Shown: positions 8,564-26,139 of the stretch, piece by piece
Layout of the letters: each line of letters begins with the position of its first letter
Numbering within the stretch: position 1 is the first letter of the stretch
DNA from: a bacterium
Lineage (GTDB): Bacteria; Oederibacteriota; JAAXVQ01; JAUVAV01
Direction of reading: 5' to 3'
NCBI GenBank assembly: GCA_021108215.1
Contig: JAIORK010000036.1
Span: forward strand, 22,948-86,947
Length of the DNA stretch: 64,000 nucleotides
The notes under the pieces: generated by a model
Database searches by the model: none
What the model saw: only the letters and a program-made list of their open reading frames with translations
What the model was told of the DNA's origin: nothing
Position numbers and translations under genes: made by a program

Positions 8564-8606
8564 AATACCGCCTCACAAAAAAAACATATACTATTTTAAT
8601 GATTAT

Positions 8607-9167: not shown

Positions 9168-9306
9168 CTCCTGAGTGTGGGGGCCTGCCGCTTCATTTCA
9201 ACCGGTACTGAAGCAGACATTAGAACTATTCCCTGATAAATTCTGTATAATTTAAGTTTATGAGGGATAAAAGTGCTTTGTCAAGCGCCATATCCCCTCC
9301 CCGGCT

Positions 9307-9513: not shown

Positions 9514-10030
9514 GAATCAACCCTCCCAATATTTCCATGCGTTTCCCCAAAGCCAAACCAAACCGGCAACCAATTTCCAATCCCACCACAGTCATCCCTG
9601 CCGCAACCAAACCAATCAATCCGGCCGGCCAAAAAATGGGTGTCTCAAGTACTGAAAACCCAATTCCAACAACCAAAGCATCAATGCTGGTTGCAATAGC
9701 CAAAGTTAATAAAATCCAACCCTTGGTTGGATCGCCAGATTTCCGCTTTCTATCCGCACCTTGCATACTATCCCAAATCATATGCAACCCCACCAGCAAC
9801 AGCAATATACAAGCAATCCAATGAGATATATCCCTGAAATATCCTACAAATACAGACGCAGCCTTCCAACCGATCACCGACATAGTAAACTGAAAAAATC
9901 CGAACGCCCCTGCCATTCTCATGGTTTGTGTTAAGTTCGGCCGGCATAATTTCACACCCGTGGCGATAGCTACTGCAAAGGCATCCATGCCTAAACCCAC
10001 AGCTACACCTAAAAGCATCCAAAATGACAT
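9473..10030 (-). CDS. mntP: Manganese efflux pump MntP
   Basis: 185 aa, two DUF204 repeats with GMDAFAVAIATG and SIDALVVGIGFS motifs, six TM helices; length and motifs typical of MntP. Confidence 0.85.
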   Translation of the reverse strand: MSFWMLLGVAVGLGMDAFAVAIATGVKLCRPNLTQTMRMAGAFGFFQFTMSVIGWKAASVFVGYFRDISHWIACILLLLVGLHMIWDSMQGADRKRKSGDPTKGWILLTLAIATSIDALVVGIGFSVLETPIFWPAGLIGLVAAGMTVVGLEIGCRFGLALGKRMEILGGLILAGIGIKILVGHF

Positions 10031-10068
10031 ATGATATCCCTCTTTGATGAAAATCCGTGTAACATTTC

Positions 10069-10098
10069 AAAAAAAAACGGCCCCCTTTAAGGGGGCCG
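10069..10098 (-). terminator. Rho-independent terminator downstream of the csp gene
   Basis: Perfect palindrome CGGCCCCCTTTAAAGGGGGCCG followed on the minus strand by a T-run (AAAAAAAAA on the plus strand). Confidence 0.6.
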
Positions 10099-10135
10099 TT
10101 TCAATCATTGGCAAAATTGAATATACTTGTTAAAG

Positions 10136-10530: not shown

Positions 10531-10676
10531 GATTTTAATCGTCCCCTTCACGTTCCCTTGCACAATAACACGCGCCATATAGACACCGGGCACAACATCT
10601 TGGCAGTCCCAGACCAGACTTTGACCCGGACCCTCCGGCAACTCTTCCTGCAGTATTGCCACACGCTAACAGAAAT
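10531..10676 (-). pseudogene. Orphan 3' fragment of a T9SS C-terminal-domain gene (paralogous to the end of 14267..16906)
   Basis: About 88% nucleotide identity over ~140 bp with 14281..14420. Encodes ...LPEGPGQSLVWDCQDVVPGVYMARVIVQGNVKGTIK* behind an in-frame stop, with no upstream body; sits directly after the metE stop. Confidence 0.5.
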
Positions 10677-12977
10677 TTATCCGCTTATCTTGATTTGCCC
10701 TCTCAGCTCTTTGGCTGCTGCAACCATGTTGTGCAAGGCATCGTTGACTTCAGGCCAATTTCTGGTCTTCACTCCGCAATCAGGATTAATCCACAATTGT
10801 TCAACCGCCATAACTGCCATTGCTTTTTTCATCCTATTGATAATTGCTTCCTTTTCCGGAACAAGCGGTGAATGGATATCATAAACTCCCGGACCGATAT
10901 CATTGGGATACTTAAATTCACCAAAGGCCGTCAAAAGCACCATATCCGACCGCGAGGCCTCAATCGATATAACATCTGCGTCCATTGCGGCAATGGCATC
11001 CAAAATATCCTCAAAGTCCCCATAACACATGTGCGTATGAATCTGCGTTTCATTCTTAACCCCCGCTGATGCCAATCGAAAACAATCCACTCCCCATTTC
11101 AGATATGCGGGCCATTCGGTTTTTTTCAGCGGCAACCCTTCCCGCAAAGCCGGTTCATCAATCTGTATCACATGAATACCCGCTCGTTCCAAATCAGCTA
11201 CCTCATCCCGAATCGCCAAGGCGATTTGTTGACAGGTATCCTTCCTCGGCTGATCATCACGTACAAAAGACCATTGCAAAATAGTAACCGGTCCGGTAAG
11301 CATGCCTTTCATTGGTTTTTTCGTTAAAGATTGTGCAAAAGAACTCCACGCTACGGTCATCGGTTCTTTTCTTTCCACATCTCCATAAATAATCGGCGGT
11401 TTGACACAGCGAGACCCATAGCTCTGTACCCATCCGTTTTTAGTAAAGACAAAACCATCCAGATGTTCACCAAAATATTCAACCATATCCGTACGTTCAA
11501 ATTCTCCATGCACCAATACATCCAGGCCTATCTCTTCCTGAAATGCGATACACTTTCTTGTTTCTTCCTTTAAAAACTGTTGGTACGCTTCCTGATTCAA
11601 TTTCCCTGATTTTAAATCCCGTCTTTTCAAACGAACCGATTGCGTCTGCGGAAAAGATCCGATCGTTGTTGTCGGCAACAAAGGCAGCCGGAATTTTTCC
11701 TGCTGCATCTTTTTCCGTTCATTAAACGGAGCATTTCTGGCCAGCATCCGGGCAGTAACTTTGCGACCCCGTTCTTTAATCCGTAATTGATTGACTTTTT
11801 CCGATTTTCGTCTGAATTGAACAGCTGCCTGTCTTTTGGTTAATTCATCAGCTATTACACTCTTTCCTTGAGTGCCCACTTTTCCTAAAAGGACTATTTC
11901 ATCCATTTTTTCTTTTGCAAAACACAGCCAGGATTTAATCTCCTCATCAAGCTCGGTTTCTTCTTCCAGGCCAAACGGAACATGCAATAACGAACATGAA
12001 GAACTAATGATTACATTATTTTCACCCAGCTTGGTTATCGCTTTTTCAATCATTGGAATAAAAATCCCCAGATCGCTGCGCCAGATATTCCTCCCATTAA
12101 TCACACCCAGAGACAATTGTTGATCCGGTCTGATGATTTCCAAAACCTGATCAAGTTGTTCCGGCGCTCTAACAAGATCAACATGTAAACCATCGATTGG
12201 ACAATTGACAATGTCATTTAAATAATTTGTGATACCGCCAAAGTATGTGGTTAATTGTATTTTCCATCTTGAATCTACTGATGATAATTGTTTATAGGTT
12301 TTATGAACAGCTGCAGCAACGTCTTCTGCCCGGTCCAAAACCAAACAGGGTTCATCCATCTGAATCCAATCCGCCCCGGCTTCCGCCAATTTATCCAATA
12401 TAGCTTCATAAACCGGCAAAAGTAATGGCAATAATGTTAATACTGATGCCGCGCCATCAACCATTCTTCCCGACAAAAGATAAGAAACCGGCCCAAGCAA
12501 AACAGGCCGGGTATGAATCCCCATTGCCTTGGCCTCTTCAAATTCCCGAACCGCTTTCAATGCATAAAGTTTAAATTCCTGGTTTTCTTTAAATTCAGGA
12601 ACAAGATAGTGATAGTTGGTATCAAACCATTTGGTCATTTCCATGGCGGGAATATTCTGATTGTCGTTTTTTTTACCGCGTGCCATTGCAAAATATAAAT
12701 CAAGATCAATATCACCGTCATTCCAATTGTAGCGTTCGGGCACGGCACCTACCATACAAGTCGTATCAAGAACCTGATCATAAAACGAAAAATCATTGGA
12801 AGGAATAATTCCCAATTGATGTTCCTGCATTAGCCGCCAGTGAGCGACTCTTAATGCTGAAGCAACCTCAAGTAATTCTTCCTTATTTATTTCCCCCCTC
12901 CAATATTTTTCCAGAGCTTTTTTAAGCTCGCGTTTTTTTCCCATTCTGGGAAATCCTAAAACTGCAGTTTTGGCCAT
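10677..12977 (-). CDS. metE: 5-methyltetrahydropteroyltriglutamate--homocysteine S-methyltransferase (cobalamin-independent methionine synthase)
   Basis: N-terminus MAKTAVLGFPRMGKKRELKKALEKYW and C-terminal Zn-binding region are typical of MetE; ~766 aa after start reassignment to the ATG preceded by AGGGGG (the listed ORF has a 38-aa extension). Confidence 0.93.
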   Translation of the reverse strand: MAKTAVLGFPRMGKKRELKKALEKYWRGEINKEELLEVASALRVAHWRLMQEHQLGIIPSNDFSFYDQVLDTTCMVGAVPERYNWNDGDIDLDLYFAMARGKKNDNQNIPAMEMTKWFDTNYHYLVPEFKENQEFKLYALKAVREFEEAKAMGIHTRPVLLGPVSYLLSGRMVDGAASVLTLLPLLLPVYEAILDKLAEAGADWIQMDEPCLVLDRAEDVAAAVHKTYKQLSSVDSRWKIQLTTYFGGITNYLNDIVNCPIDGLHVDLVRAPEQLDQVLEIIRPDQQLSLGVINGRNIWRSDLGIFIPMIEKAITKLGENNVIISSSCSLLHVPFGLEEETELDEEIKSWLCFAKEKMDEIVLLGKVGTQGKSVIADELTKRQAAVQFRRKSEKVNQLRIKERGRKVTARMLARNAPFNERKKMQQEKFRLPLLPTTTIGSFPQTQSVRLKRRDLKSGKLNQEAYQQFLKEETRKCIAFQEEIGLDVLVHGEFERTDMVEYFGEHLDGFVFTKNGWVQSYGSRCVKPPIIYGDVERKEPMTVAWSSFAQSLTKKPMKGMLTGPVTILQWSFVRDDQPRKDTCQQIALAIRDEVADLERAGIHVIQIDEPALREGLPLKKTEWPAYLKWGVDCFRLASAGVKNETQIHTHMCYGDFEDILDAIAAMDADVISIEASRSDMVLLTAFGEFKYPNDIGPGVYDIHSPLVPEKEAIINRMKKAMAVMAVEQLWINPDCGVKTRNWPEVNDALHNMVAAAKELRGQIKISG

Positions 12978-13059
12978 CCTCGGGCCCCCTTTCAAAATAA
13001 AAAACCCTGACCTGTCATGCACGGGGCATAAAACAGACCAGGGGATCATTGAAAGTCCT

Positions 13060-13265
13060 GCCTTCCGATGATGCTTTCCCGGCTGCTTCACCCCAATCCA
13101 CGAGGGTCAAACAAGTTTTTTGTCTTAAGCAGGTCTTCTGGCTTCCGGATCGTTCTACTAACCCAACCTTCCCATCCGTATTGAATAGTGGTCATTTGGG
13201 TGTTCGTCACCGGTTACAGCGGCGGGACCGCGACGGACTTGCACCGTCTTCCCTTTTCATCCTCT
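13060..13265 (-). promoter_or_regulatory. Cobalamin (AdoCbl) riboswitch in the metE leader
   Basis: Minus-strand sequence GGGAAGACGGTGCAAGTCCGTCGCGGTCCCGCCGCTGTAACC...GCCAGAAGACCTGC matches the conserved cobalamin riboswitch core (GGTG.AA.TCC, CCCGCCGCTGTAA, B12-box GCCAGAAGACCTGC). Followed by a hairpin/U-tract before the metE RBS. Confidence 0.8.
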
Positions 13266-13382
13266 CGCGAGGAACATAAGACTTTTTTTATTAGATAGAT
13301 TTTATCGTTATAAAATTGAAAGTCAATCCTTAACTTACCGTTCCACATTTTTTTCGCGTTTTTTAGTGTGTCATGGAGCTGG

Positions 13383-14222
13383 TCAATCTTTGAGCGCTTT
13401 CAGAATATTTCTAAATCTCGTTGCGCTGATGGGATGGTATGCCAGAATATCACCTTGATACAGTATCCCAAACGTCCCAAACGGCACCGGACTTTGCTGT
13501 GCTGCTCTGCTGTCATTTAAATCCACAATCTTGAGTGTCAGCTTAAATTCATTTTTCGCAACCTCCGCCATTTCCTGCACATTGGTCACCGTATAAGGAC
13601 ATTGATCAGCTCTGAAAAGAATGAGTCCCTTTTTCCATTTTTCCGGGATGGTTTTTAATTGCACTGCAAAGCAAGGTGGCGGTGTCCGTGTCTGTGTGGA
13701 AAATGTCTTTGCCATCAATAAAAAATCGGGCTCTGACCGGTCCACAACCGCATACTTTCTTTTTAGAAATATCCGTTCATCCGCCATAAAAGAACCCTTA
13801 CGCACCACCACGGCAACACCCGCCAATTTTTGTTTCTTTGCATCCGCTTCACACTGTTCAATCAGCTTGGAGGCATATCCGTGCCCTTTAAATTCTTTTT
13901 TAAATCCCACAAACAAACAGTGAATCACCATATACTTATCCGCCCGGATGGACCGCCAGCAAGTTTTACCCGGCATATATTCAATCATTCCCTGTGTTCC
14001 GGTTTTTTCAGAATGAAGCATAAATACTCTCAAACCGTGTTTCAACTGTTCTAAAACCCACCCGGTTTTTTCCTGATACCCGGGCCGTTTTGGATTTTTA
14101 TACCCACAAAAGGCAAACGTCTGATAATTTTCCGGTGTCACTTGTATCATTTTCAACGCATCCATGACAGCCTCCCTTGGCAGTATTAATGTTGCGCACA
14201 TCATAACACAATCACGTGACAA
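13383..14222 (-). CDS. GNAT family N-acetyltransferase
   Basis: Acetyl-CoA binding motif A (HCLFVGFKKEFKGHGYASKLIE) in the N-terminal half, extra C-terminal domain; start codon uncertain (several in-frame ATGs). Confidence 0.6.
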   Translation of the reverse strand: MSRDCVMMCATLILPREAVMDALKMIQVTPENYQTFAFCGYKNPKRPGYQEKTGWVLEQLKHGLRVFMLHSEKTGTQGMIEYMPGKTCWRSIRADKYMVIHCLFVGFKKEFKGHGYASKLIEQCEADAKKQKLAGVAVVVRKGSFMADERIFLKRKYAVVDRSEPDFLLMAKTFSTQTRTPPPCFAVQLKTIPEKWKKGLILFRADQCPYTVTNVQEMAEVAKNEFKLTLKIVDLNDSRAAQQSPVPFGTFGILYQGDILAYHPISATRFRNILKALKD

Positions 14223-14266
14223 CCCTGTGTCAGGTTTGGGATATACGCCGACTGTTTTTATGCAAT

Positions 14267-16906
14267 TTATTTAACAATGCTAACTTTGATAGTCCCCTTC
14301 ACGCTCCCTTGCACAATAACACGCGCCATATAGACACCGGGCGCAACATCTTTGCAGTCCCAGTCCAGGCTTTGGCCCGGACCCTCCGGTAAATTTTCCT
14401 GCAGTACCGCCACGCGCTCACCGATCAAATTATAGAGCATAATCTCAACCTGGGCAGCTTGCTCCAAATGGAGCACAAAGCGCATCTCTGATTTGGCTGG
14501 ATTGGGAAATGCCAACGCCGGCCGGCCGCCCAGGTCGACATTGAGCAAAGGATTGTCCGGTGTCACGGTTGCGGTTGGCGTTACGGTCAAAGTGGGTGAG
14601 ACGGTTTGGGTCAATGTAATAGTTCCGGTCAGGGTAATGGTGGGTGTCACGGTTGCGGTAAAAGTGATGGTCCGGGTAGGTGTCGCGGTTGCGGTCGGCG
14701 GTCCAATCACAACCACATCCGTTGCAAACGAGGATGTATTGTTACTGCTGTCCGTGGCCAAAGCGGAAACCGTCTCTCCGCCAACCAGACCGGACGGCGT
14801 GAGGCTCCAGTTGCCCGAGCCATCGGCCGTGGTCCTGCCGACCAGGGAAATGCTCCCTCCCGGATTTCCGCCCGCTTCAGCCAGGAAAACCTCGATGTAA
14901 TCATTATTCCCCGCGGTTCCGGAAATCAGGGTGCTGGAGGCAGCCGTAATCACAGGCGGTATTTTATCCGTATTGCCGCCCGCGGACAACAGAATCGCAT
15001 CATGGCCTATCGCTGTGATGGTATTGGCAAACAAACCGTTTTGAATTGCATTGGAATTTAAAATACTAATTCCATAATTCATGCCGGTAAAAATATTTCC
15101 CGAACCGGTATGCTGAATACCAAAAAAATTGCCCTGCCCGTTCGAAATACGGACACCGGTACCCATGGTCAATCCAGTGGCCGTGCCGTCTGGCATGCAA
15201 TTAAGCCAGTTCTGGCATATGGTATTGTTGTCCGCTCCGTCATACAGTTCAAATCCGTAGTTTAAACAGTAAATATAGTTGCGGTCTTCAGGCAGCAGTC
15301 CGCCAATCACGTTATCGATCGCGACGCGAAGCTGGAAACCGTTAAAATTCTCGATTACGCTGCTACGGTCAAGACTCAACCCGATATCATTTCCCAGTAT
15401 ATAATTGCCAACCGCAAGTTCCAGAAAAACCGCATTCAAACTATTGCCGGAAATGATATTGCGGTAGATGGGATCCGGACCGCCGATATAATTGTTGGTG
15501 GCATTCGCGTAATATAAGCGGAGGCCGTGATAATTGGGAATCGCGGCATTTCCGGCCAGATTAAGGCCGATAATGTTTCCGATCACAGTATTTCCCTGGC
15601 AGTCGTAAATGAGCACACCCGCGTTTCCCGTACCACTGCTGCCTGAAATCAAATTGCCCCGCATCTGGCCGGCTGACAAATTGGGTCCGCCGACCAGATT
15701 ATTATCACCGGTTATCCATACCCCGCACTGGTCGCTGATGGCTGCCGCGTCACCGGCCCAGTTGGTGCCGATCAAATTGCCGCTTACCGTATTGCCCGAT
15801 CCTTGCAGCCGGATATTGTATTGGCTGCCGGATATCAGATTGCGTTCCTTATATGCTGCATTCAAATGACCGCCGATCGCGAAAGAAAACCCATACAGAT
15901 CAAGACCGTAACTGGAATTATTGGTAATCTGGTTGTTCTGGATAATATAATGATGCGAGGTTGTGGCAGTGTTATAAATGCCGCGGTCATTGGCCGCAAT
16001 GGTATTGCCATAACCGTCTACAGGCAAACCGATCCAGTTGTTATTGGAATAATTGCCGATACCAATCCCGGCAAAGGAGTGGCCCAAAGGTGTGGCCATA
16101 TCACTGCCCAGACCGATCACATTGCCGCAGACACTGTTGCCCGAGGTTGCCGCATAGGTGAAACGCAGACCCGAGTTGCTGTTGCCGGATATCAGGTTGC
16201 CCTCATTGGCATACCAGCTCCCACCGATCATATTATTTTCACATTGATCACCAAACTCCACGCCAACTAAATTAGGCCGGGCCAAAAGCCCGGAGCTGTC
16301 GGTCCCAATATAATTATTCTGGATTTTCATACTGCTGCAGTGACCAACATATATGCCATAATGGGTATTACTGGATATAATGTTGCGGTCACTGATATTG
16401 GGTGTGCCGATCACTGCATTCGTACTGCCCAAAATGTAAAGACCGTCGCGATTTGGCCGGCTTACATCTGTCCAGTCAAGACCGATCCTGCATCCGGTAA
16501 TTGAAATATTGTCGGCATTAACGGAGCGGATTGCCTGATACGCATCCACCAACGCTACATTTCTGAATTGCGTATTATCACTGGTTATGGCAATCAAAAA
16601 CATATACGTATTACTCTCCTGCGCCGGATAGTACCCGATCACCACGTCATTACTCTCCCCATCAATAATTAATTCATTATTAATCCATATTGCGCTGAAA
16701 ACCGTGATGGAATTGGAATTGCCGCTGGCGCCCGGCCCAAAGGTAATGGTATCACCTGCCGTGGCATCCAGAACCGCCTGGCGCAACGTCCCCGCACCGC
16801 TGTCCTCGCGGCTGGTGACTTGAATGGTAGCAGCTTGCGCAAGTGTCGCCATACCGCATAAAATAATAACTGCAATATACCTGACCCCTAAATATCTTTT
16901 CACCAT
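14267..16906 (-). CDS. Secreted right-handed parallel beta-helix repeat protein with Thr-rich linker and T9SS (Por) C-terminal sorting domain
   Basis: Signal peptide (GMATLAQA). Dozens of N.I.GN/NxIxxN beta-helix rungs. TATATPTRTITFTATVTPTITLTGTITL linker. C-terminal FPNPAKSEMRFVL...YNLIGERVAVL...GVYMARV matches the Por secretion tail (T9SS CTD) pattern. Confidence 0.7.
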   Translation of the reverse strand: MVKRYLGVRYIAVIILCGMATLAQAATIQVTSREDSGAGTLRQAVLDATAGDTITFGPGASGNSNSITVFSAIWINNELIIDGESNDVVIGYYPAQESNTYMFLIAITSDNTQFRNVALVDAYQAIRSVNADNISITGCRIGLDWTDVSRPNRDGLYILGSTNAVIGTPNISDRNIISSNTHYGIYVGHCSSMKIQNNYIGTDSSGLLARPNLVGVEFGDQCENNMIGGSWYANEGNLISGNSNSGLRFTYAATSGNSVCGNVIGLGSDMATPLGHSFAGIGIGNYSNNNWIGLPVDGYGNTIAANDRGIYNTATTSHHYIIQNNQITNNSSYGLDLYGFSFAIGGHLNAAYKERNLISGSQYNIRLQGSGNTVSGNLIGTNWAGDAAAISDQCGVWITGDNNLVGGPNLSAGQMRGNLISGSSGTGNAGVLIYDCQGNTVIGNIIGLNLAGNAAIPNYHGLRLYYANATNNYIGGPDPIYRNIISGNSLNAVFLELAVGNYILGNDIGLSLDRSSVIENFNGFQLRVAIDNVIGGLLPEDRNYIYCLNYGFELYDGADNNTICQNWLNCMPDGTATGLTMGTGVRISNGQGNFFGIQHTGSGNIFTGMNYGISILNSNAIQNGLFANTITAIGHDAILLSAGGNTDKIPPVITAASSTLISGTAGNNDYIEVFLAEAGGNPGGSISLVGRTTADGSGNWSLTPSGLVGGETVSALATDSSNNTSSFATDVVVIGPPTATATPTRTITFTATVTPTITLTGTITLTQTVSPTLTVTPTATVTPDNPLLNVDLGGRPALAFPNPAKSEMRFVLHLEQAAQVEIMLYNLIGERVAVLQENLPEGPGQSLDWDCKDVAPGVYMARVIVQGSVKGTIKVSIVK

Positions 16907-17246: not shown

Positions 17247-17450
17247 ATGGTACAAGGTAAAGTAAAGTGGTTTAATGATGCAAAAGGATTCGGTTTCTTG
17301 GAGCGCGAAGGCGGCAGTGATGTATTTGTTCATTTCTCAGCTCTCAAAGGCGACGGATTCAAAAGTTTGGCTGAAGGTGAAGCAGTAGAATTTGATGTCG
17401 TTGACGGTCCCAAAGGCCCTCAGGCATCCAATGTTTCCAAACTTGGCTAA
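17247..17450 (+). CDS. cspA: Cold-shock protein CspA family
   Basis: 67 aa, [12 protein letters not shown] and VFVHFSAL motifs; long 5' UTR typical of csp genes; RBS AGGAGG upstream. Confidence 0.9.
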
Positions 17451-17487
17451 GCAACCCATCCGACAACTCGTTGTATAGGTTTTAATT

Positions 17488-17523
17488 AAAAACCCCCGTA
17501 CCTTTTGGTGCGGGGGTTTTTAA
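17488..17523 (+). terminator. Rho-independent terminator of cspA
   Basis: AAAAACCCCCGTACC-TTTTGG-TGCGGGGGTTTTT hairpin plus T-run 38 nt after the stop. Confidence 0.7.
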
Positions 17524-17597
17524 TTTGGGGTAGCGCTACCCTACTGCTCCCCATTAACAAAAGAAGAGTAGTATAAAAGCTCTTTATTTTCCTACTA

Positions 17598-18320
17598 CTA
17601 ATAGCACTCATAGTACGGTGGCTTTTTGGGTGTTGGATATATTTTAGCCGAATAGTGTATGTTTTTTATCTTGTCACGAAATTTGTTTTGCAAAATAATA
17701 TTATTTCTAATTGCTGAAATATACTTATCCAGCGCTATTACTAAATCAACCTTTAAGGCATTAATTGATATCGGCAACCAATATCCAGCATAGTTATTCA
17801 AATGCGTTATTTCTCCGGCAGAATGAACTTGCACTATTTGGAAGTGTTTAACATCAAGCCTTTTTTCAAATATTATTTTGCCATCATTATCTGCTATTTG
17901 GAAATTGTGGCTGTAACTATTTCGTTCACCGTCTTCATCAGAAAATACCAACCACTTTAATATCGCTTTTTTACTTTCGAGATCTATTAATAGATTTTGT
18001 GGATGAAATCTATGACACAATCCATGTCGATACATGTAATAAAACCATTTAACTTCCTGGTCTTTGTAAATACTTGTGTCAAAATAATTACGAATAAATC
18101 CTAACTCAACATCCTCACCATCTTTCCCGAAGGGTCTTTGACCATGAAGATATTCACTCAATTCCAGCACATAACTAAAAAACATCAATGGAATAGTAAA
18201 CTCTCCTATCCCTGCTTTTAGAAGAGCACCCATTTCTAAGAGGATCGAGTTTTTATAATCTTTATCCAAATATTCGATTATCTGGTCACTGCTAACATTT
18301 TTAAATAATTTCCAAGACAT
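17598..18320 (-). CDS. Hypothetical protein (240 aa), second gene of the uncharacterised two-gene island operon
   Basis: Intact AT-rich ORF 32 nt downstream of the 777-aa gene on the same strand; no recognisable catalytic motifs. Confidence 0.5.
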   Translation of the reverse strand: MSWKLFKNVSSDQIIEYLDKDYKNSILLEMGALLKAGIGEFTIPLMFFSYVLELSEYLHGQRPFGKDGEDVELGFIRNYFDTSIYKDQEVKWFYYMYRHGLCHRFHPQNLLIDLESKKAILKWLVFSDEDGERNSYSHNFQIADNDGKIIFEKRLDVKHFQIVQVHSAGEITHLNNYAGYWLPISINALKVDLVIALDKYISAIRNNIILQNKFRDKIKNIHYSAKIYPTPKKPPYYECY

Positions 18321-18352
18321 ACCTCATCTCCATTTTAGACCACTTATTGATT

Positions 18353-20686
18353 TTATTTAATCGGATGTTTAGAAAGAATTTGTCGTGCTAATTCTTCTCC
18401 GTCATTTGGGCCTGGAAATCCACCTCTTTCCCGTAATCGTTCTTCAAGTTGTTTTTGTCTAAGTAAAATATGTTTTTGTACATTTTTCCATTGTTCTTCT
18501 GTGAAAACCTTCGGTTTTGTTTTAATTTCTTCGTCAACCTTGTTTGCCATATGTGTATTGTTTTTTGCACGCATTACTAATTGAATAGCATAAAAATGTG
18601 CATATATATCACCAATTGCGTAATCATCAGGATTTTTAGAAATTTCGCAATATGATTCCAGGATTGAGCGTATATTTGAAATACATAAGAGTAATACATC
18701 TTGCCACCACTCTCGGGTATAAAATAAAAGGCCTATGTACACCATAGAATCACATGCAATATCAGTCCATTCTTTAAATATGCTCTTCTTTCTATCAAAA
18801 GCAACCCAGTAAAATGACAAAATCCACGTGAATTTATCAACTAATTCTTTCACATCATTTTGGTTAGATCGTAGTGGATTATCTAATATCTGACACACAA
18901 CTTTAGCAATATGCTTAATTAGCTCATTAATCTCCCAAATAAGAAAACTATCTCCAAACTCATTTTTTTCTGCAACATTGCGCAAGTGCCGTGCAATGAT
19001 GTCTGTCATGTCTATTAATTCGTAATATGGATTTGTCGCATCTCGTTCAGGATCTACTTTCGGAAATATAGTTGCAGCCATAGCGAATAAATTCCCGAGT
19101 GAAGTTTGTTCGACAAGACTATATGCCTTTGTAAACGGATGATTCATTGATAGTCTTCCTTGAAGAGTTTCACTAATTATTGCAAAGGGCGCTAAATTTC
19201 CAAGTTTTTGAAAAACTTGGCCAAGTACTTCTTTGAAGTAATAATCTTTATTCCGAAGCATATGGTCAAGGATGATAAAATACTGTTTAATAACTTCTTC
19301 TGCTAATACAGGATTGCGGTTAATATAGAAGTACTGAGCAATTTCTGATATTCCATTTATAACTGGCAAGTGAATGTCTGAGTCATCAACATCCTTCGGA
19401 GTACATTTAATAATTCCAGAAAGCATGCCGCTCGTCTGAAACGGCACCTCATCAAGCCCTTTTGTTTGGGCAATCCTCACGCATGACAACATGTAGTTAA
19501 TTGGTTTCATAGACAATGGTGCAGTGTTCGGCCGGTATTTTCTTGCTCCTAAATTTGCTGTGTGGATAGTAATTTTCTTGTATGCTTCAGAAACACTTAA
19601 AGCTGCGGATTCATCATTTTGTGATATAGCAATACGGCTAATTTCATTTAACATTTCATAGGAACAGCCTGTAACTGCTTCTACATCAGATTGGGAAGTT
19701 AACAGCAATGTATCTGGGCAGGGCAAAATTAGTAAATTTAGCTTTCTTGCAGATAAATAATACATAGTCAAATGAGCAATCGCATACACAGCCGATTTCG
19801 TTAATAGTTTCTCATTTCGAGAAATAGCTTTTACTGCGATCTCAGATAAATCATTAATCCAACTATTGATAGTTTGGGGATAGCCGAACACTTGAGGATA
19901 ATAAATCGTTTCTATATCCTCAATTACCACTCCCTGCTTTTTTTCTTCCGGGAGTAATTTATAATGAAGTCTTGCTGATCGATTAACTGTCTTTTTTATA
20001 CGATCAATTGTTCTCATTGCTTGCTTGAGAGCAAGATTTGTTGAATAAGTTGGATCTAACAGCTTGCATATATGACGATGATACAAGCGTAGCAGATCAA
20101 GACTAAATCCCAGAGTTAATATAGCAACAGCTAATTTCAAGTTTTCTGAAACTCCAGCGAATCCACCCGCAGAAAAAGCAAAGCACGCTATACACAATAT
20201 CGCAAGAGCTACAAACGATGCATTTGTAATTAAGTCTCTCCGATAAAGACGGACAATTGAAGATGACCAAGCTTCTGCTGCACGTTGTATTGGTATAATT
20301 GATAGGGTTAATACAAGTGCCAGAATTGTTCCGTACGTGGCACCAAGTTGAATGAGCATTTTATCTATTGATTGCGTTGTGTTTAATGCTGTTCGCAAAG
20401 GCGGATAACCCAGAATAAATGATGCTATTATAAGGCCAATAATACCTATCATAATCTTGCTTGTTTTCAAAAGCAACCCACGACTAAACGAAGTAATATA
20501 AAACCATAAACGAACAACTTTTATTGTCAAATACGTTTTTATTCGCGTTATTATAGTTTTCAATCCATCACGTAGCGACATAATCATTCGTTTGAAATAT
20601 TTCACTAGTTTTGGCCACCATAGTATTACGTTTGTTGACCATAAATTGCGAATTTTAAAGTATGATTTGTTTTTATTTTGGTTCAT
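18353..20686 (-). CDS. Hypothetical large polytopic membrane protein (777 aa; N-terminal ~4-5 TM helices plus ~550-aa alpha-helical soluble domain)
   Basis: Hydrophobic segments (IGIIGLIIASFILGY, YGTILALVLTLSIIPI, FVALAILCIACFAFSAGGF, LAVAILTLGFSL) followed by a long helical domain. No P-loop, nuclease or protease motifs recognised. AT-rich codon usage distinct from the backbone. Confidence 0.55.
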   Translation of the reverse strand: MNQNKNKSYFKIRNLWSTNVILWWPKLVKYFKRMIMSLRDGLKTIITRIKTYLTIKVVRLWFYITSFSRGLLLKTSKIMIGIIGLIIASFILGYPPLRTALNTTQSIDKMLIQLGATYGTILALVLTLSIIPIQRAAEAWSSSIVRLYRRDLITNASFVALAILCIACFAFSAGGFAGVSENLKLAVAILTLGFSLDLLRLYHRHICKLLDPTYSTNLALKQAMRTIDRIKKTVNRSARLHYKLLPEEKKQGVVIEDIETIYYPQVFGYPQTINSWINDLSEIAVKAISRNEKLLTKSAVYAIAHLTMYYLSARKLNLLILPCPDTLLLTSQSDVEAVTGCSYEMLNEISRIAISQNDESAALSVSEAYKKITIHTANLGARKYRPNTAPLSMKPINYMLSCVRIAQTKGLDEVPFQTSGMLSGIIKCTPKDVDDSDIHLPVINGISEIAQYFYINRNPVLAEEVIKQYFIILDHMLRNKDYYFKEVLGQVFQKLGNLAPFAIISETLQGRLSMNHPFTKAYSLVEQTSLGNLFAMAATIFPKVDPERDATNPYYELIDMTDIIARHLRNVAEKNEFGDSFLIWEINELIKHIAKVVCQILDNPLRSNQNDVKELVDKFTWILSFYWVAFDRKKSIFKEWTDIACDSMVYIGLLFYTREWWQDVLLLCISNIRSILESYCEISKNPDDYAIGDIYAHFYAIQLVMRAKNNTHMANKVDEEIKTKPKVFTEEQWKNVQKHILLRQKQLEERLRERGGFPGPNDGEELARQILSKHPIK

Positions 20687-20788
20687 ATAATCCTCTGAAT
20701 CTATTTTCCTGTCAGCGAAATATAGGGCATTATCGTCAACTTTTAGCGGAATAGCAATTCAAAATATATTACACCGTAAATAGCACCG

Positions 20789-20983
20789 TTATTTTATACA
20801 TGACTGTTTCTTTATGGCTTTTACTACCAAATCACTGATTTCTTGCATTATCTCTGGATCGTATTGGATAAAATCAAGTCTACCGCTGCTTTTATCTTGG
20901 TTTTCTTTTACTACTTCTCGATCCATACGTTCAGTTATGATTTGGAAGACCTTTATATCACCCCGTGCCGCTTGTTTGATCAT
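20789..20983 (-). CDS. Small hypothetical protein (64 aa from ATG; open frame continues ~45 codons upstream without an ATG)
   Basis: In-frame upstream region (back to a TGA at ~21120) encodes a GNPCGAKCGVSHW Cys-rich motif but has no canonical start; possibly a degraded gene or a non-AUG start. Confidence 0.25.
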   Translation of the reverse strand: MIKQAARGDIKVFQIITERMDREVVKENQDKSSGRLDFIQYDPEIMQEISDLVVKAIKKQSCIK

Positions 20984-21119
20984 GGCGCCTGCAACCTTTT
21001 CCTGGCTGATACTGCCAGTCTCAAACTGTTCCTTGATAACAACATTCCAGTGACTGACTCCACACTTGGCACCGCAGGGATTTCCGCTTTGTCCCTTTCT
21101 TCTAATTAATTCTTTATAA

Positions 21120-21147
21120 ACAAAAAAGAGCCTCCCTTTCGGGAGGC
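21120..21147 (-). terminator. Terminator hairpin after the XRE regulator gene
   Basis: AAGAGCCTCCC-TTTC-GGGAGGCTCTT perfect stem followed on the minus strand by TTTTTTG. Confidence 0.5.
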
Positions 21148-21149
21148 TC

Positions 21150-21359
21150 TTAAAGATTCATTAGGTCCTTTAATTTAATCCCCAGCCCATGAGCTATCTT
21201 AGCTAGAGTGGTGAATTGCGGGTCCACAAGACCTTTTTCGATCTTACTTAGGTTGCCTTTGGACATGCCGTTTTCATAAGCTAGGTGTTCCAGGGTAATC
21301 CCCTTCTCCTTCCTTAGCTTATGTATCCTCATGCCCAGTTTTTCGGTTAATTGGCTCAT
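21150..21359 (-). CDS. XRE-family helix-turn-helix transcriptional regulator (Cro/CI-like)
   Basis: 69 aa with HTH (ITLEHLAYENGMSKGNLSKIEKG). Confidence 0.7.
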   Translation of the reverse strand: MSQLTEKLGMRIHKLRKEKGITLEHLAYENGMSKGNLSKIEKGLVDPQFTTLAKIAHGLGIKLKDLMNL

Positions 21360-21647
21360 AATGGAGTTGATTTTACAATATTTTAGGTTTATAGTAGTTT
21401 CTTATAAGAAACTTTTGGAGGTTAAATATGCAAATCTTAAAATCTACAATTCCTTATGTCATTGAATTTTCACCGGATGACATCAATTATTTACATTTGG
21501 CCTGTCATTATTATAAAGATTTACTGAAAAATAATAAGGACATGAAAAAAATCAAACGACGGGATAGACTTAAGCATCTAAACCAAATGATAACGCTCAT
21601 TGATTTGATGATGTGAGGATTATCAAAAAAATATTTTTATATTTGTT

Positions 21648-22214
21648 CTATTTACTCTGCATTGCTAATAGCTCCGCCTTTTTTCCCTCCATCGGGGCTG
21701 AAATATGTATTCGTGATTTTTCTTTTTTACGCTTCTGGCCTCCCTGGTTTAATTTCGAGAGGTTTTCAGATATAAATCTATCAATATTCTCTTTAGCTTC
21801 CACATGAAAGCGAGCCACTCCGTTTTTAATATCCACATCTTTACCAGCCATGTGTATCAATTGATCAAGATACATTTTTACTTTAAATGCATGATATTTA
21901 ATCAAATCAACAATTTTTACCGAAGGCTGGCGAAAACCAATTTCCAAGTGAAGCCCAAGGACGCTTGCATAATTCAATAGATCACCAACAGCGATATCTT
22001 TGTCATAAGAGGATTCGATTTTGGATATTTTCCCCTGGGAACAACCAACTTTTTTCGCCAGTTTGGTCTGCGTGAGTTGGTGTTTGCAACGCAACATGAG
22101 CAGGAATTTGGAAATCATCCGGTTTTCGATTTCATACGCTACGCTTTTCTTGAATTCCTCATCCGTTGAAAGCCCTTCCATCATTTTCATAACATTTTCA
22201 TATTTTTTCGCCAT
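21648..22214 (-). CDS. HigA-like antitoxin / XRE-family HTH protein
   Basis: HTH (LTQTKLAKKVGCSQGKISKIES) in a 188-aa protein; start overlaps the stop of the upstream toxin-like gene (toxin-first HigBA arrangement). Confidence 0.6.
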   Translation of the reverse strand: MAKKYENVMKMMEGLSTDEEFKKSVAYEIENRMISKFLLMLRCKHQLTQTKLAKKVGCSQGKISKIESSYDKDIAVGDLLNYASVLGLHLEIGFRQPSVKIVDLIKYHAFKVKMYLDQLIHMAGKDVDIKNGVARFHVEAKENIDRFISENLSKLNQGGQKRKKEKSRIHISAPMEGKKAELLAMQSK

Positions 22215-22585
22215 TATTGTCCCCCCTGTTTCATACCCTTTACCTTTTTCTTGTATTCCTCAATATCCCTACTCTGGGACCTCTTATCCCCTATTCCTAA
22301 AAGCACAACCCTCTTTTCCTTTACGTCGGAATAGATATAAAGCCGTGTTTCCTGGAGCTTCTTTCTTATTCCTCCACATCTTTGGTCAATCGCTTTGATG
22401 CCCATGGGTTCCGGATAGACAAACCCCACCTGGACCAACGAAGGCGACCCACACTCACACAAAGTCCTAAAATACGTGTCCAGGTTGTTCAAAACGCACT
22501 TTAATTCATCTTTGTGCTTTTTTTGATAGTGCTTGTGGTCCCTCTCGAAGGATTGCGTCGGTTGGAGATGCCATGGTTCCATCAT
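22214..22585 (-). CDS. RelE/HigB-like type II toxin (addiction-module killer family)
   Basis: C-terminal RLYIYSDVKEKRVVLLGIGDKRSQSRDIE resembles the HigB/RelE-like killer signature (...Y..vvLL.ggdKs.Q..DI); 123 aa, coupled to the downstream XRE antitoxin. Confidence 0.5.
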   Translation of the reverse strand: MMEPWHLQPTQSFERDHKHYQKKHKDELKCVLNNLDTYFRTLCECGSPSLVQVGFVYPEPMGIKAIDQRCGGIRKKLQETRLYIYSDVKEKRVVLLGIGDKRSQSRDIEEYKKKVKGMKQGGQ

Positions 22586-23034
22586 CGGCTCAATCCGTAG
22601 GTATTGGTATAATTATTCCATATTGGAATATTATCTCTTTTGGTTATATTTGTCAACGCTTCCATAAAACGTTTCCCTCGAATAAGTATCTTGCGTACCC
22701 TTTATTCGTTAGACAATTTTTTCGAGAGTTTCATGCATTTATTACTATTTTTTTTATTCTTTTTACGGATTGATATTGAGGTTGTATTAAGGACTCCTAC
22801 AAGGAATATCATGGTTTTTGGATAAGATGGCTGAAATGAGATAAGGGAAATTGGCTGCTGTGCTCACAGAGTTCTCTTCGCATGAGATTCCCCGTTTGGT
22901 ATCTAAGAAAAACAGAAAAAACCAATCTTCACTACTCGGGAATCGGTTACTACGGTCGCAACATCATGTTGCTCCCTGCGTAACCCCGCCTCGACAGCTA
23001 GCCAAAGACATCTCGTTTTTCATCCCAAAAAACT

Positions 23035-23403
23035 CTATTTTCCTGCTTCCTTTTTATCCAAACCCCTCACCAGTCCGTTGATCATTTTGCAAATTTCATT
23101 AAGATTTTCGTTCAAGTCTAGACAGTTATCTGAATTTATTAATTGTTTGCGTTTACATACTTCAATAATCGGTATACATTCCTGAGCAGATCCTCTAGCA
23201 ATCCAAAAGAACTGTTTGCGTTCTTTTGGATGCCATCTACCGTTTCCTTCTGCCAAATTAGCCGATATGGATAGCGCTGCCCGATTGAGCTGATCAATAA
23301 GGTAATAGTTGCCTTTCGGAAATGTGTCGGTAAGTTTAGATGTCTTTTCTGCAACATCGACCGCTTTTTGGTAAACTTCCAATTTCTCAAACATGAAAGA
23401 CAT
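23035..23403 (-). CDS. Four-helix-bundle protein (23S rRNA intervening-sequence protein family)
   Basis: LEVYQKAVDVAEKTSKLTDTFPKGNYYLIDQLNRAALSISANLAEGNGR matches the family signature (vYq.a..l......FPk.e...l..Ql.RAa.Si..NiAEG.gR). Confidence 0.7.
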   Translation of the reverse strand: MSFMFEKLEVYQKAVDVAEKTSKLTDTFPKGNYYLIDQLNRAALSISANLAEGNGRWHPKERKQFFWIARGSAQECIPIIEVCKRKQLINSDNCLDLNENLNEICKMINGLVRGLDKKEAGK

Positions 23404-23602
23404 AGTTCAAACCTCCTATTTGGGTCCTTTATGGTATTAGACTGAAAATAGGAAGATTTCATGCTGGGAAAATGAAAAAAATACAAAAAAAATTGTGAAC
23501 AGCAGATCAGCTGAGCAGCAGACCGCCCTGAATCACATGTGATTCAGGACTCCACCAGAAATAGAAAACCCTGCACCTTATTGGTGCAGGATTTTCTATT
23601 TC

Positions 23603-23677
23603 TGGTAGCGCTACGGGGAATCGAACCCCGGCTTGATGACTGAGAATCATCCGTCCTAGCCGCTAGACGATAGCGCC
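23603..23677 (-). tRNA. tRNA-Glu (anticodon CUC)
   Basis: Minus strand GGCGCTATCGTCTAGCGGCTAGGACGGATGATTCTCAGTCATCAAGCCGGGGTTCGATTCCCCGTAGCGCTACCA folds as a cloverleaf. Anticodon stem GATGA/TCATC, loop TTCTCAG (CTC), T-loop TTCGATT, encoded CCA. Confidence 0.8.
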
Positions 23678-24133
23678 ATGAGCGAAGCGAATAGCTCTGC
23701 TGTTCTGCTGCTCTGATTTCAATAAATATGTACAAGCCAATTCCAACAACTTAAAAATATGATCAGCGGACCAGCCGATAGCAGACCGCTGGTTCGCTTT
23801 TTCCTGCTGTTCTGCTGCTCTGATGCTCACCTGCTCTGCAATTTCGCTTTTTCGAAATTGCGAACCCCGGCTTGATGACTGAGAATCATCCGTCCTAGCC
23901 GCTAGACGATAGCGCCATGAGCGAAGCGAATAGCTCTGCTGTTCTGCTGCTCTGATTTCAATAAATATGTACAAGCCAATTCCAACAACTTAAAAATATG
24001 ATCAGCGGACCAGCCGATAGCAGACCGCTGGTTCGCTTTTTCCTGCTGTTCTGCTGCTCTGATGCTCACCTGCTCTGCAATTTCGCTTTTTCGAAATTGC
24101 GAACCCCGGCTTGATGACTGAGAATCATCCGTC
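23622..24133. repeat. Tandem direct repeat, 239-bp unit x ~2.1, each unit starting with the 5' ~55 nt of tRNA-Glu (truncated tRNA copies)
   Basis: Units start at 23622, 23861 and 24100 with CGAACCCCGGCTTGATGACTGAGAATCATCCGTC... and are near-identical through ...CAATTTCGCTTTTTCGAAATTG. Copies 2 and 3 lack the tRNA 3' acceptor/T-arm strand. Confidence 0.85.
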
Positions 24134-24151
24134 GTCTTGCGCAGCAAGACA

Positions 24152-24235
24152 GCTCTGCTGTTCTGCTGTTCTGCTGTTCTGCTGTTCTGCTGTTCTGCTG
24201 TTCTGCTGTTCCGCTGTTCTGATGCTCTGCTGTTC
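24152..24235. repeat. Octanucleotide microsatellite (CTGTTCTG)n, ~10 units with minor variants
   Basis: CTGCTGTTCTGCTGTTCTGCTGTTCTG... directly read in sequence between the tandem repeats and tRNA-Gln. Confidence 0.8.
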
Positions 24236-24277
24236 TGATGTTCTGCTGCTCTGCCACTCTTTCTCACTACGAAAGAG

Positions 24278-24353
24278 TGGCTGCCGATCCTGGGCTCGAA
24301 CCAGGGACCCCCTGCTCCAGAGGCAGGTGCTCTACCAATTGAGCTAATCGGCA
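24278..24353 (-). tRNA. tRNA-Gln (anticodon CUG)
   Basis: Minus strand TGCCGATTAGCTCAATTGGTAGAGCACCTGCCTCTGGAGCAGGGGGTCCCTGGTTCGAGCCCAGGATCGGCAGCCA. Anticodon stem CCTGC/GCAGG, loop CTCTGGA (CTG), T-loop TTCGAGC, discriminator G plus CCA. Confidence 0.8.
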
Positions 24354-24449: not shown

Positions 24450-25919
24450 TTAAATATCGATCCCCGCCGTTTTCAAACCTATTTCCAAACGGCTGATCGT
24501 TTTTTCCTTACCCAAAATTTCCATCACTTCAAAAATACCGGGTGATTGCATACGTCCCGTCAGGCTAACCCGCAAAGGATGCGCTAAAATCCCGAATTTC
24601 ACCTGCTTTTCTTCAATAAAACCCTTGAGGGATTCTTCCAATCCTGAAACGGAAAAGGATTCTACCATTTTCAATTTTTCGTGTAAAGCCTTAAATAAAA
24701 CCTGATTTTCCTTCATACTCGCTAATTTTTCCCGCGCTTTTTCATCTATTTTTTCCAAATCCGGCTCCTGAAAAAAATAATCCACCTGACCGGGCAGCTC
24801 CGTAAGCAGTTTAAATTTTTCCCGCACCAATTTGACGCAGGCTGTGGCATAGGTTGTATCGTCTTTATCAGATAAAACCCCGGTATTTCGTAAAACACTC
24901 AGCGCACGTTTAATGTAAACAGCTTCATCAATACTGCGCATATACTGCCCGTTCATCCAGGTCAATTTATCCGGATCAAAGACCGCAGGATTTTTACTGA
25001 CTTTTTTCAAAGAAAATTTTTCTTCCAGTGCTTGTTTGGAAAATAGTGTGGTTTTGTCATCAAATGCCCAGCCCAAGAGCGCTAAATAATTAATCATGGT
25101 TTCCGGCAGGTAACCCTCTTTGGCATACGCACCAATTGAAGTGGCGCCGTGCCGTTTGGACAACCGCGTCTTATCCGGACCCAGAATCATGGGAACATGC
25201 GCAAATTTCGGAAGCGGTTCATTGAGCGCCTTGTACACCGCAATCTGACGGGGTGTATTGGAAAGATGATCGTCACCGCGGATCACATGCGTAATTTTCA
25301 TGGTCACATCATCCACTACAACAGCAAAATTATAGGTCGGCAGACCATTGGTCCTAAACAGGACAAAATCATCCAGTACTTTATTTTCAAAAACAACTTT
25401 TTCCCGAACAGCATCCCCGATAATCGTCTCGCCCTCGGTCGGCATTTTCATGCGAATGGTATGCGGTTCTCCGGCAGCAACACGGGCTTTGGCCTCTGTT
25501 GACGGGATGTGACGACAAGCTCCGTTGTATTTGGGATCTTCATTTTTTTCCAATGCTTGCTTGCGCATACTGTCCAGGCTTTCTGCTGAACAAAAACAAT
25601 AATAGGCATCTCCCGAGTCAAGCAGCTGATTCACTTTCTCCCGATAGATATCCAACCGCTCTGTCTGACGGTAGGGTCCAAAATCACCGCCCACACCCGG
25701 CCCTTCATCCCAATTGAGGCCGAGCCATTTCATATCTTCAAGGATCATCTGCACAGATTCCTCGGTGCTGCGCTCAACATCGGTATCTTCCAGGCGAAGC
25801 ACAAAGGTCCCCCCCTGACGGCGTGCATAGAGATAATTAAAGAGTGCGGTGCGTGCGCCGCCAATATGCAGATGACCGGTCGGCGAGGGTGCAAAGCGGA
25901 CGCGAATGGTTCCAGACAT
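24450..25919 (-). CDS. gltX: Glutamate--tRNA ligase (GluRS)
   Basis: HIGH motif (PSPTGHLHIGGART) and KMSKS-type RLSKRHGA. Start reassigned to the second ATG (MSGTIRV...) because GGAGGT lies between the two ATGs. Confidence 0.93.
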   Translation of the reverse strand: MSGTIRVRFAPSPTGHLHIGGARTALFNYLYARRQGGTFVLRLEDTDVERSTEESVQMILEDMKWLGLNWDEGPGVGGDFGPYRQTERLDIYREKVNQLLDSGDAYYCFCSAESLDSMRKQALEKNEDPKYNGACRHIPSTEAKARVAAGEPHTIRMKMPTEGETIIGDAVREKVVFENKVLDDFVLFRTNGLPTYNFAVVVDDVTMKITHVIRGDDHLSNTPRQIAVYKALNEPLPKFAHVPMILGPDKTRLSKRHGATSIGAYAKEGYLPETMINYLALLGWAFDDKTTLFSKQALEEKFSLKKVSKNPAVFDPDKLTWMNGQYMRSIDEAVYIKRALSVLRNTGVLSDKDDTTYATACVKLVREKFKLLTELPGQVDYFFQEPDLEKIDEKAREKLASMKENQVLFKALHEKLKMVESFSVSGLEESLKGFIEEKQVKFGILAHPLRVSLTGRMQSPGIFEVMEILGKEKTISRLEIGLKTAGIDI

Positions 25920-26139
25920 AGTACCTCCAGGCATTTTTGTGCAACAAAAATGCAGAGCATTTGAGAGAAGAAAACAGAAAACAGTTCAACACACTCAAAT
26001 GTGGTCTATTCTCAACTTTCTATTGCTCTGCGTACGTTTTATAATAACAAAACCCGAAAAAAGGTTTCCAGTTTCACCCTTTCTCGGGTTTTCAATGTCA
26101 CTTTTGAATAATATCCGTTGCCATACAAAAAAATCTATG

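Follow-up and report, generated by a model that had tools for sequence, protein, structure and literature searches.

How does a block of atypical, AT-rich DNA come to lie directly against the 3′ end of a tRNA gene when no integrase accompanies it? The question is raised by an islet of about 6 kb in a genome of the candidate phylum Oederibacteriota (assembly GCA_021108215.1, contig JAIORK010000036.1, positions 22,948–86,947), a lineage whose closest named relatives are candidate division FCPU426 and Firestonebacteria. We refer to this whole stretch of 64,000 nucleotides (nt) as the window and give all positions in its coordinates. The islet spans 17541–23602, directly at the 3′ end of a tRNA-Glu(CTC) gene (23603), and was studied together with its flanks to ~25 kb. 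Labels L001–L117 denote the other contigs and loci fetched for comparison.

A first-pass annotation had interpreted the islet as a decayed integrative element that used tRNA-Glu as its attachment (att) site. Much of the underlying description survives, including a tRNA-derived direct repeat, partly foreign DNA and accessory genes, but the islet is a mosaic and not one element; there is no sign that an integrase was ever present, and the tRNA-adjacent gene appears to be inherited. We favor, with middling confidence, a composite integrase-less islet in the gap between tRNA-Glu and the convergent cold-shock gene cspA, which arose when DNA recombined at the tRNA 3′ end through a recombinase that was lost or acted in trans. 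Integration by an integrase of the element's own is something that we can only infer.

An Att-Like Direct Repeat Brackets the Islet

An att-like direct repeat brackets the islet. The first-pass annotation had noted an 11-nt tRNA-derived repeat, GGTAGCGCTAC, at 17529–17539 and 23604–23614, and these prove to be its only plus-strand sites in the window (0.00 expected in shuffles). The proximal 11-mer is the 3′ acceptor strand of tRNA-Glu plus CC, and the distal one lies 4 nt past the terminator hairpin of cspA (17484–17525). The 11-mer alone leaves the orientation of the repeat unfixed because its 10-mer core, GTAGCGCTAC, is palindromic in both copies; the distal 11-mer sits inside a perfect 12-nt palindrome, GGTAGCGCTACC, extending to 17540, and matches the minus strand as well.

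A search for longer degenerate att repeats at both boundaries, as the annotation had recommended, was successful. Aligned directly, 23559–23614 and 17484–17539 share 44 of 57 columns with 2 gaps (score 45), compared with a score of 22 in the inverted orientation and a background mean of 14.7 (standard deviation 2.3, maximum 28) from scanning both strands of the remainder of the window exhaustively. This extended alignment settles the repeat as direct, with the 11-mer as its core. It comprises the tRNA 3′ end and a whole terminator hairpin: the proximal copy (23559–23614) joins the tRNA-Glu acceptor strand and CC to the tRNA-Glu terminator, the full stem of which (23554–23606) takes in the CCA end, and the distal copy (17484–17539) joins the tRNA-derived 11-mer to the cspA terminator. 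The repeat begins cleanly within the tRNA acceptor stem and its copies are 6 kb apart.

Identity is 77% overall and unevenly distributed, with 11 of 11 nt matching in the core and ~72% identity over the other 46 columns. A perfect core beside 72% arms has the appearance expected of a crossover core, and the probability of 11 matches in 11 under uniform decay at the rate of the arms is about 0.03. The distal tRNA-derived 11-mer is found in the window lineage only, being absent from the relatives L022 and L117 described below. Adjoining it is a 36-nt junction (17541–17576) found in this genome only, which separates the repeat from the end of a shared AT-rich module and contains, on its minus strand, GAGCAGTAGG, resembling the periodic arrays discussed below. 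A candidate internal att remnant at ~22770–22800, between the genes for a four-helix-bundle protein and a toxin, was rejected because its score of 25 fell below the background maximum of 28.

The Islet Is a Layered Mosaic

The islet has a GC content of 36.5% compared with 46.9% for the rest of the window, the lowest of any 6 kb in the window, and a tetranucleotide distance of 0.34 (typical value 0.15), the largest in the window. The impression gained from the letters, that the island is AT-richer than its flanks, is thereby confirmed, with the qualification that the drop is uneven. Relative to the 33 open reading frames (ORFs) of at least 200 amino acids (aa) in the whole window, two of which are island genes, and whose GC content at third codon positions (GC3) averages 0.494 (standard deviation 0.075), atypical composition holds for part of the islet only, namely for three genes with GC3 values of 0.27–0.32. 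The islet is a layered mosaic, not one decayed element, and its three layers, all encoded on the minus strand, differ in age.

The first layer, resident beside tRNA-Glu across the clade, consists of a gene for an Avd-like four-helix-bundle protein of family PF05635 (23035–23403; GC3 0.37) and its structured leader. The assignment is secure, with 102 bits to PF05635 (E=2e-29; cut-off 33.8), 96 bits to TIGR02436 (cut-off 24), and a match to the solved structure 2GSC in the PDB (E=2e-10). The leader (23404–23558) runs from the tRNA-Glu terminator to the gene and contains CGGTCT followed by an inverted periodic array at 23497–23522. Leader and N-terminus are homologous to those of L022 (23417–23270), and the leader layout, as read from the sequences, is a shared one. 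The protein is 73% identical to its counterpart in L031 and 74% identical to a fragment in L022, a divergence matching that of the housekeeping gene gltX in the same relatives (68–69% aa identity).

The second layer is close to the host in composition and comprises a putative toxin–antitoxin pair (21648–22585) and an XRE-family regulator. The pair consists of a 188-aa helix-turn-helix (HTH) antitoxin (21648–22214; HTH_3, E=2e-7; GC3 0.40) and a 123-aa toxin (22214–22585; GC3 0.56), whose ORFs overlap by 1 nt. The toxin is weakly RelE/ParE-like (TIGR02683, E=1e-3, 19 bits against a cut-off of 63), with no match in Pfam or among solved structures. The 69-aa regulator (21150–21359; PF12844, PF01381; GC3 0.51) is followed by a strong intrinsic terminator on the same strand (21126–21151; 11-bp stem with 7 GC pairs and a T-run), which divides this part of the islet from the AT-rich module.

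That module, the third layer, encodes proteins of 64, 777, and 240 aa and is a recent acquisition. The 64-aa ORF (20789–20983; GC3 0.32) lies upstream of the 777-aa gene and is probably the first gene of the module. The 777-aa membrane protein (18353–20686; GC3 0.27) has a weak, sub-threshold DUF2254-like N-terminus, and the 240-aa protein (17598–18320; GC3 0.30) is a near-orphan with 6 matches among 1.84 billion representatives; neither has a family match above the Pfam cut-off. The AlphaFold2 model of the 240-aa protein has a predicted local distance difference test score (pLDDT) of 70, reached in one of five models, and Foldseek found no match to it in the PDB below E=0.5. A 2.4-kb contig from another run (L115, 34% GC) matches window positions 19114–17577 at 88.9% DNA identity and carries a copy of the 240-aa protein with 85% identity; past the match it encodes a different 220-aa protein, and the homology ends at 17577, 37 nt from the distal repeat. 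The family of the 777-aa protein is patchy (~100 members; beyond this population and L115, identity does not exceed 56%). The module was horizontally transferred, as the match to L115 in a different context and this patchy distribution attest.

The gene content is accessory only, as had been described (an operon of unknown proteins, XRE regulation, a HigBA-like toxin–antitoxin system, and the four-helix-bundle gene). This cargo has no recognized housekeeping role and may be stress- or defense-related, an idea that comes only from the toxin–antitoxin pair and from one homolog of the 777-aa protein encoded beside AbiEii, DUF499/DUF1156, and SNF2-helicase genes; another homolog stands alone. PADLOC recognized generic HTH regulators only among the islet genes. 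Viral contigs were scanned with the tRNA 3′ end, with the 777-aa and four-helix-bundle proteins, and with the antitoxin; no relevant element emerged, and a phage or provirus origin was rejected, the only viral match being an unrelated phage tRNA array. This array, on L029 (IMGVR_UViG_3300047678_000160, 5590–10109), contains 29 tRNA genes, and the 3′ 27 nt of its tRNA-Glu(CTC) are identical with those of the window tRNA-Glu.

The tRNA-Glu 3′ Flank Differs among Relatives

Both flanks of the islet are conserved. On the right are the intact tRNA-Glu (23603–23677), tRNA-Gln(CTG) (24278–24353; both predicted with ARAGORN), and gltX (24450–25934), which lies upstream of the two tRNAs; all are on the minus strand, and synteny on this side extends to L004, L022, L031, and L117. 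On the left is cspA (17247–17450, plus strand; PF00313, E=3e-29), convergent with tRNA-Glu and encoding a product with 89% aa identity to that of the cold-shock-domain (CSD) gene adjoining tRNA-Glu in L022.

The relatives carry differing content between these flanks. L022 (gltX 68% identical) has gltX, tRNA-Gln, tRNA-Glu, a truncated four-helix-bundle ORF, and cspA in that order, with cspA ~1 kb from tRNA-Glu and no cargo gene. L031 (gltX 69%) has an inverted tRNA-Glu, a four-helix-bundle gene, and then a gene encoding LVIVD repeats. In L117 (gltX 64%), tRNA-Glu is directly followed by another AT-rich module (11587–14400; 2.7 kb, 34–39% GC), which encodes an SDH-type ClpP-like protease and a protein with an NmeDI_C domain; no four-helix-bundle gene was called there, and part of its leader is recognizable. 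L025 (gltX 64%) lacks tRNA-Glu entirely. As a separate observation, the inverted tRNA-Glu of L031 (3409–3882; inverted relative to tRNA-Gln) is still followed by its four-helix-bundle gene, an arrangement that points to a local inversion at the tRNA-Glu locus.

A variable, repeatedly used insertion hot spot at the 3′ flank of tRNA-Glu is well supported, because relatives carry such differing content there. The first-pass annotation had named identical gene content in all relatives, with no compositional shift, as one observation that would speak against its integrative element; gene content differs in L022, L031, and L117, and GC content is shifted. It had also suggested a search for an empty site in which cspA lies directly next to tRNA-Glu. 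L022 comes close to such a site in having cspA nearby and no cargo, but a truncated four-helix-bundle ORF stays in place and the relative is a distant one.

Terminators in these genomes show an unusual pattern. L022 has a 46-nt direct repeat with 93% identity that extends from the tRNA-Glu terminator to the cspA terminator and excludes the tRNA end. DNA homology between the window and L022 extends over cspA as far as 17490, over the tRNA as far as 23601, and over the four-helix-bundle gene's leader and N-terminus, and leaves the terminators uncovered. The pattern fits recurrent recombination at the tRNA 3′ end in each lineage, or concerted evolution, and not a single ancient event. A score of 32 between the CSD-gene terminator and the tRNA-Glu terminator of L117 was set aside, since the control had included the hairpin of the query itself and the match did not contain the tRNA part.

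Proposed Recombination at the tRNA 3′ End

On the reading that we prefer, recombination at the 3′ end of tRNA-Glu would have brought in the DNA, copying the tRNA end and terminator to the far side as recombination between attB and attP would. The recombinase would have acted in trans, or would have been lost later with no detectable trace, and further cargo would then have settled in the space from the four-helix-bundle gene to the distal repeat.

Several observations weigh against this reading. The absence of an integrase or recombinase, which the first-pass annotation had reported, extends to remnants: Pfam and other family scans of the islet ORFs found no integrase, recombinase, or excisionase, and a Pfam search of 65 six-frame islet fragments of at least 35 aa found no integrase remnant. 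A classical model would call the tRNA-adjacent gene element-borne, yet the four-helix-bundle gene and its leader look vertically inherited at this site, because the divergence of the protein matches that of gltX. The two terminators are alike within each genome (77% in the window, 93% in L022) and not between genomes, which needs concerted evolution, repeated events, or independent duplications, and L022 has doubled terminators even though it carries no cargo, contrary to a one-element reading. Relatives with a near-empty or different site share only 64–69% gltX identity with the window. A search of 5.8 billion proteins with gltX found nothing between 69% and 100% identity, and a search of genome contigs found one relative only, at 64%, on a contig ending 225 bp past tRNA-Glu; with no relatives at 69–100% identity, insertion here is not formally separable from deletion elsewhere. 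Contigs at 100% identity are all of the same strain and all carry the islet, and no presence/absence polymorphism was seen in five independent contigs over the cspA side or the islet.

Finally, local tandem duplications arise readily here, which would allow the repeat an origin other than att recombination. A perfect 239-bp tandem repeat (23622–24133, 2.14 copies) begins in the T-arm of tRNA-Glu and generates partial copies of the gene at 23861–23916 (tRNA positions 1–56) and 24100–24133 (positions 23–56). The latter 34-nt fragment directly follows a hairpin that precedes the intact tRNA-Glu in L022, and therefore marks the ancestral position of the gene. Between tRNA-Gln and this fragment lies, on the minus strand, a periodic array (ACAGCAGA)n of 12.6 copies with 90% match (24154–24254), whose unit may also be written (TCTGCTGT)n and which has its inverted partial copy at 23497–23522 in the leader of the four-helix-bundle gene.

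The most serious alternative, which we consider somewhat unlikely, does without site-specific integration. On it, the intergenic gap from tRNA-Glu to cspA would simply be permissive and prone to recombination, with cargo arriving by illegitimate recombination or by homologous exchange through conserved flanks (cspA to the left, tRNA-Glu and the four-helix-bundle gene to the right), and the repeat would be a by-product of local duplication. The 239-bp duplication with its partial tRNA copies demonstrates such activity at the same locus, and tandem units of terminator plus array are found in L004 and L054. Repeats also flank four-helix-bundle genes elsewhere, some containing just the last 5–8 nt of a tRNA and a hairpin, in neighborhoods with no integrase among the Pfam families listed. 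The doubled terminators of L022, the mosaic composition of the islet, and the missing recombinase remnant are likewise accommodated. Local duplication accounts less well for the contrast between the 11/11 core and the 72% identity of the adjoining 46 columns (about 0.03 under uniform decay), for a repeat that begins cleanly in the acceptor stem like classical tRNA att sites, or for copies that are 6 kb apart and not in tandem.

PF05635 Genes beside tRNA and tmRNA Genes

The four-helix-bundle gene has a wider connection with stable RNA genes. We sampled 80 metagenomic loci (L035–L114, from the Joint Genome Institute, JGI) encoding proteins 45–70% identical to the window protein. In 43 of them the 3′ end of a tRNA or transfer-messenger RNA (tmRNA) gene faces the four-helix-bundle gene within 400 nt, where ~0.5 would be expected from background tRNA density; the opposite geometry, with the gene on the 5′ side of the tRNA or tmRNA, occurs in none of the 80. 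Of the 35 loci that extend 400 nt or more to either side, 24 have the same arrangement. The two genes are co-directional in 29 of the 43 loci (gaps of 105–305 nt) and convergent in 14 (gaps of 97–242 nt), and ten kinds of stable RNA are involved (tRNAs for Arg, Met, Glu, Val, Ala, Gln, Ile, Pro, and His, and tmRNA). Genes past the four-helix-bundle gene in the homologous loci are mostly housekeeping genes, and no integrase family is among the Pfam families listed (25 of 56) for genes past comparable loci.

Lineages with differing tRNA-Glu sequences have a common leader layout, in which a terminator hairpin with the CCA end in its stem is followed by a long hairpin. In this array hairpin, an array of GARCA purine repeats with a period of 8 nt comes first, then a loop that ends in TGCGGTCY, and lastly a pyrimidine array complementary to the first. 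When the 1.05 Mb of fetched DNA was searched with a strict pattern for the hairpin, 28 sites emerged, 27 of which are within 200 nt of a four-helix-bundle ORF; shuffled sequences gave none. It follows tRNA and tmRNA terminators and flanks four-helix-bundle genes (e.g., L022 12176–12270 and L049 ~610–730), is present also in L036, L038, L039, L044, L054, and others, and matches no family in Rfam. Three-unit GARCA arrays occur in the window only at 23497–24251 and 38055–38129. The second of these belongs to an array element (38040–38135) that folds with z = −4.6 and lies upstream of a gene named YjbQ-like by eye from its translation.

At L062, L066, and L086, repeats flanking the four-helix-bundle gene begin in the last 5–8 nt of a tRNA. 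In L086 (1748–3000), a 78-nt direct repeat made up of the last 8 nt of tRNA-Arg, a hairpin, and an array encloses the four-helix-bundle gene together with a Cass2 (integron-associated effector-binding) gene; this is a second case in which a tRNA-derived repeat bounds a four-helix-bundle gene together with a passenger. A supposed tRNA-derived repeat 5.4 kb downstream in L094 proved to be another tRNA-Arg gene.

To our knowledge, no role has been established for PF05635 proteins outside diversity-generating retroelements (DGRs) since they were found in 23S rRNA intervening sequences, and we know of no transposition or integration function for the family. Our full-text search of the literature for PF05635 beside tRNA genes returned only the Avd and 23S intervening-sequence contexts. 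The family (PF05635/cd16375) comprises ORFs of 23S rRNA intervening sequences and the Avd proteins of DGRs (PMC10053308; bioRxiv 10.1101/2023.10.23.563531). The window protein is a clear member, and its gene resembles the intervening-sequence ORFs in belonging to a stable-RNA locus with long hairpin-forming flanks, but it lies beside a tRNA and not within 23S rRNA. Unlike DGR Avd, it scores far below the cut-off of the NCBIfam DGR-Avd model (17.3 against 80). Neither a reverse transcriptase nor template and variable repeats were noticed in 17–25 kb, where no targeted search was run, and no reverse transcriptase family was found among the individually scanned island ORFs, cspA, an 879-aa protein, and gltX. 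By analogy with Avd, which binds DGR RNA, the periodic array, in the form of RNA or single-stranded DNA, may be the ligand of the four-helix-bundle protein.

We tentatively propose, as a possibility that we rate well short of probable, that PF05635 genes and the structured element together form an undescribed recombinase-less cassette tied specifically to tRNA and tmRNA genes at their 3′ flank, and possibly homing there, the window islet being one such cassette with passengers. Whatever its basis, the adjacency of this subfamily gives a concrete, testable link between PF05635 proteins and stable-RNA loci. This association is the part worth following up, the islet itself being routine.

A narrower proposition, that the direct repeat bracketing the islet is the footprint of such a mobile cassette (terminator, array hairpin, and PF05635 gene) homing with no recombinase, and that the AT-rich genes and toxin–antitoxin pair are later passengers, seems to us unlikely. 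It would draw on the tRNA and tmRNA adjacency in 43 of 80 loci and 24 of the 35 assessable ones, on the layout common to lineages with different tRNA-Glu sequences, on the concentration of array hairpins near four-helix-bundle ORFs, and on the tRNA-end repeats of L062, L066, and L086; in the window, the array-like GAGCAGTAGG abuts the distal core. Yet here the divergence of the four-helix-bundle gene is on a par with that of its housekeeping flanks, suggesting vertical inheritance and not recent mobility, and no mobility function is known to us for the family. The adjacency could instead be functional, reflecting co-expression or processing with stable RNAs, and array hairpins also occur away from four-helix-bundle genes, as at 38040–38135.

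It is very improbable that the 11-mer is a chance match or that the AT-rich block comes from a mis-joined contig or is simply native to the genome, since, even though short-read contigs break in the repeat zone beside tRNA-Glu and the number of 239-bp units varies between assemblies (one fewer in L001, the same strain in another assembly), the extended repeat scores far higher than the background, L001 shares ~85 nt with L020 across the array zone, and L003, a variant at 99.67% identity, also has the cspA/islet junction. The assembly is sound, because same-strain contigs from other, independent assemblies (L001 and L002) are collinear from cspA via the islet into the tRNA-Glu repeat zone.

Other Features of the Window

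Among RNA features, Rfam returned just the two tRNAs, one cobalamin riboswitch, and sub-threshold terminator look-alikes. The riboswitch (13111–13294, 124 bits) lies upstream of a gene for cobalamin-independent methionine synthase (metE, 10677–13091). A 134-nt repeat with ~90% identity (10534–10667 and 14285–14418) is a duplication, just past the metE stop codon, of the 3′ end of the gene for the 879-aa protein, which has a type IX secretion system (T9SS) sorting tail. A second low-GC gene pair at 55549–60110, encoding proteins of 1280 aa (GC3 0.40) and 240 aa (GC3 0.35), may be another acquired module.

Comparison with Known Systems

The islet can be compared with three kinds of known system. 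The first comprises tRNA-linked islands and prophages, for which Williams is said to have defined, in 2002, sublocation classes of att sites used by tyrosine recombinases at tRNA and tmRNA 3′ ends. Like these, the islet is on the 3′ side of a tRNA gene, varies among relatives, is atypical in composition, and carries accessory cargo, and its direct repeat, with a core free of mismatches, starts in the tRNA 3′ end. Unlike them, it has no integrase, excisionase, or remnant of either, its core is just 11 nt, its tRNA-adjacent gene is a conserved four-helix-bundle gene where an integrase would be expected, and it is a mosaic of ages.

Cis-mobilizable elements (CIMEs) are non-autonomous, att-flanked islets that have no recombination genes and are mobilized in trans, as seen in relatives of ICESt1 and ICESt3 in Streptococcus thermophilus. 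The islet resembles them in consisting of accessory DNA between att-type repeats, with no integrase in cis and no recombination or transfer genes. It differs from them in that the arms of its repeat are much more diverged (77% identity) than those of typical CIMEs and in that it shows no sign of excision, and no helper element or cognate integrase was identified in the 64 kb of genome visible, where the Pfam scan of the other window ORFs listed the top 25 of 110 families.

The third kind is the integrase-free hot spot. Oliveira et al. reportedly described, in 2017, transfer hot spots of this type between core genes, often next to tRNA genes. The likeness here is in the same flanks enclosing differing content (the window, L022, L031, and L117), the absence of mobility genes, and a cargo of a putative toxin–antitoxin pair and other, possibly defense-related, accessory genes. 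The difference is the tRNA-derived repeat with its perfect core, a feature not expected from exchange by homologous recombination alone.

An integrase-less islet at a tRNA-Glu hot spot is a known kind of thing, and this one is a routine example of the way in which tRNA 3′ flanks collect foreign accessory DNA. What it adds to these systems is a documented example, from a candidate phylum that has hardly been sampled, in which a clear att-like repeat brackets an islet free of any recombinase.

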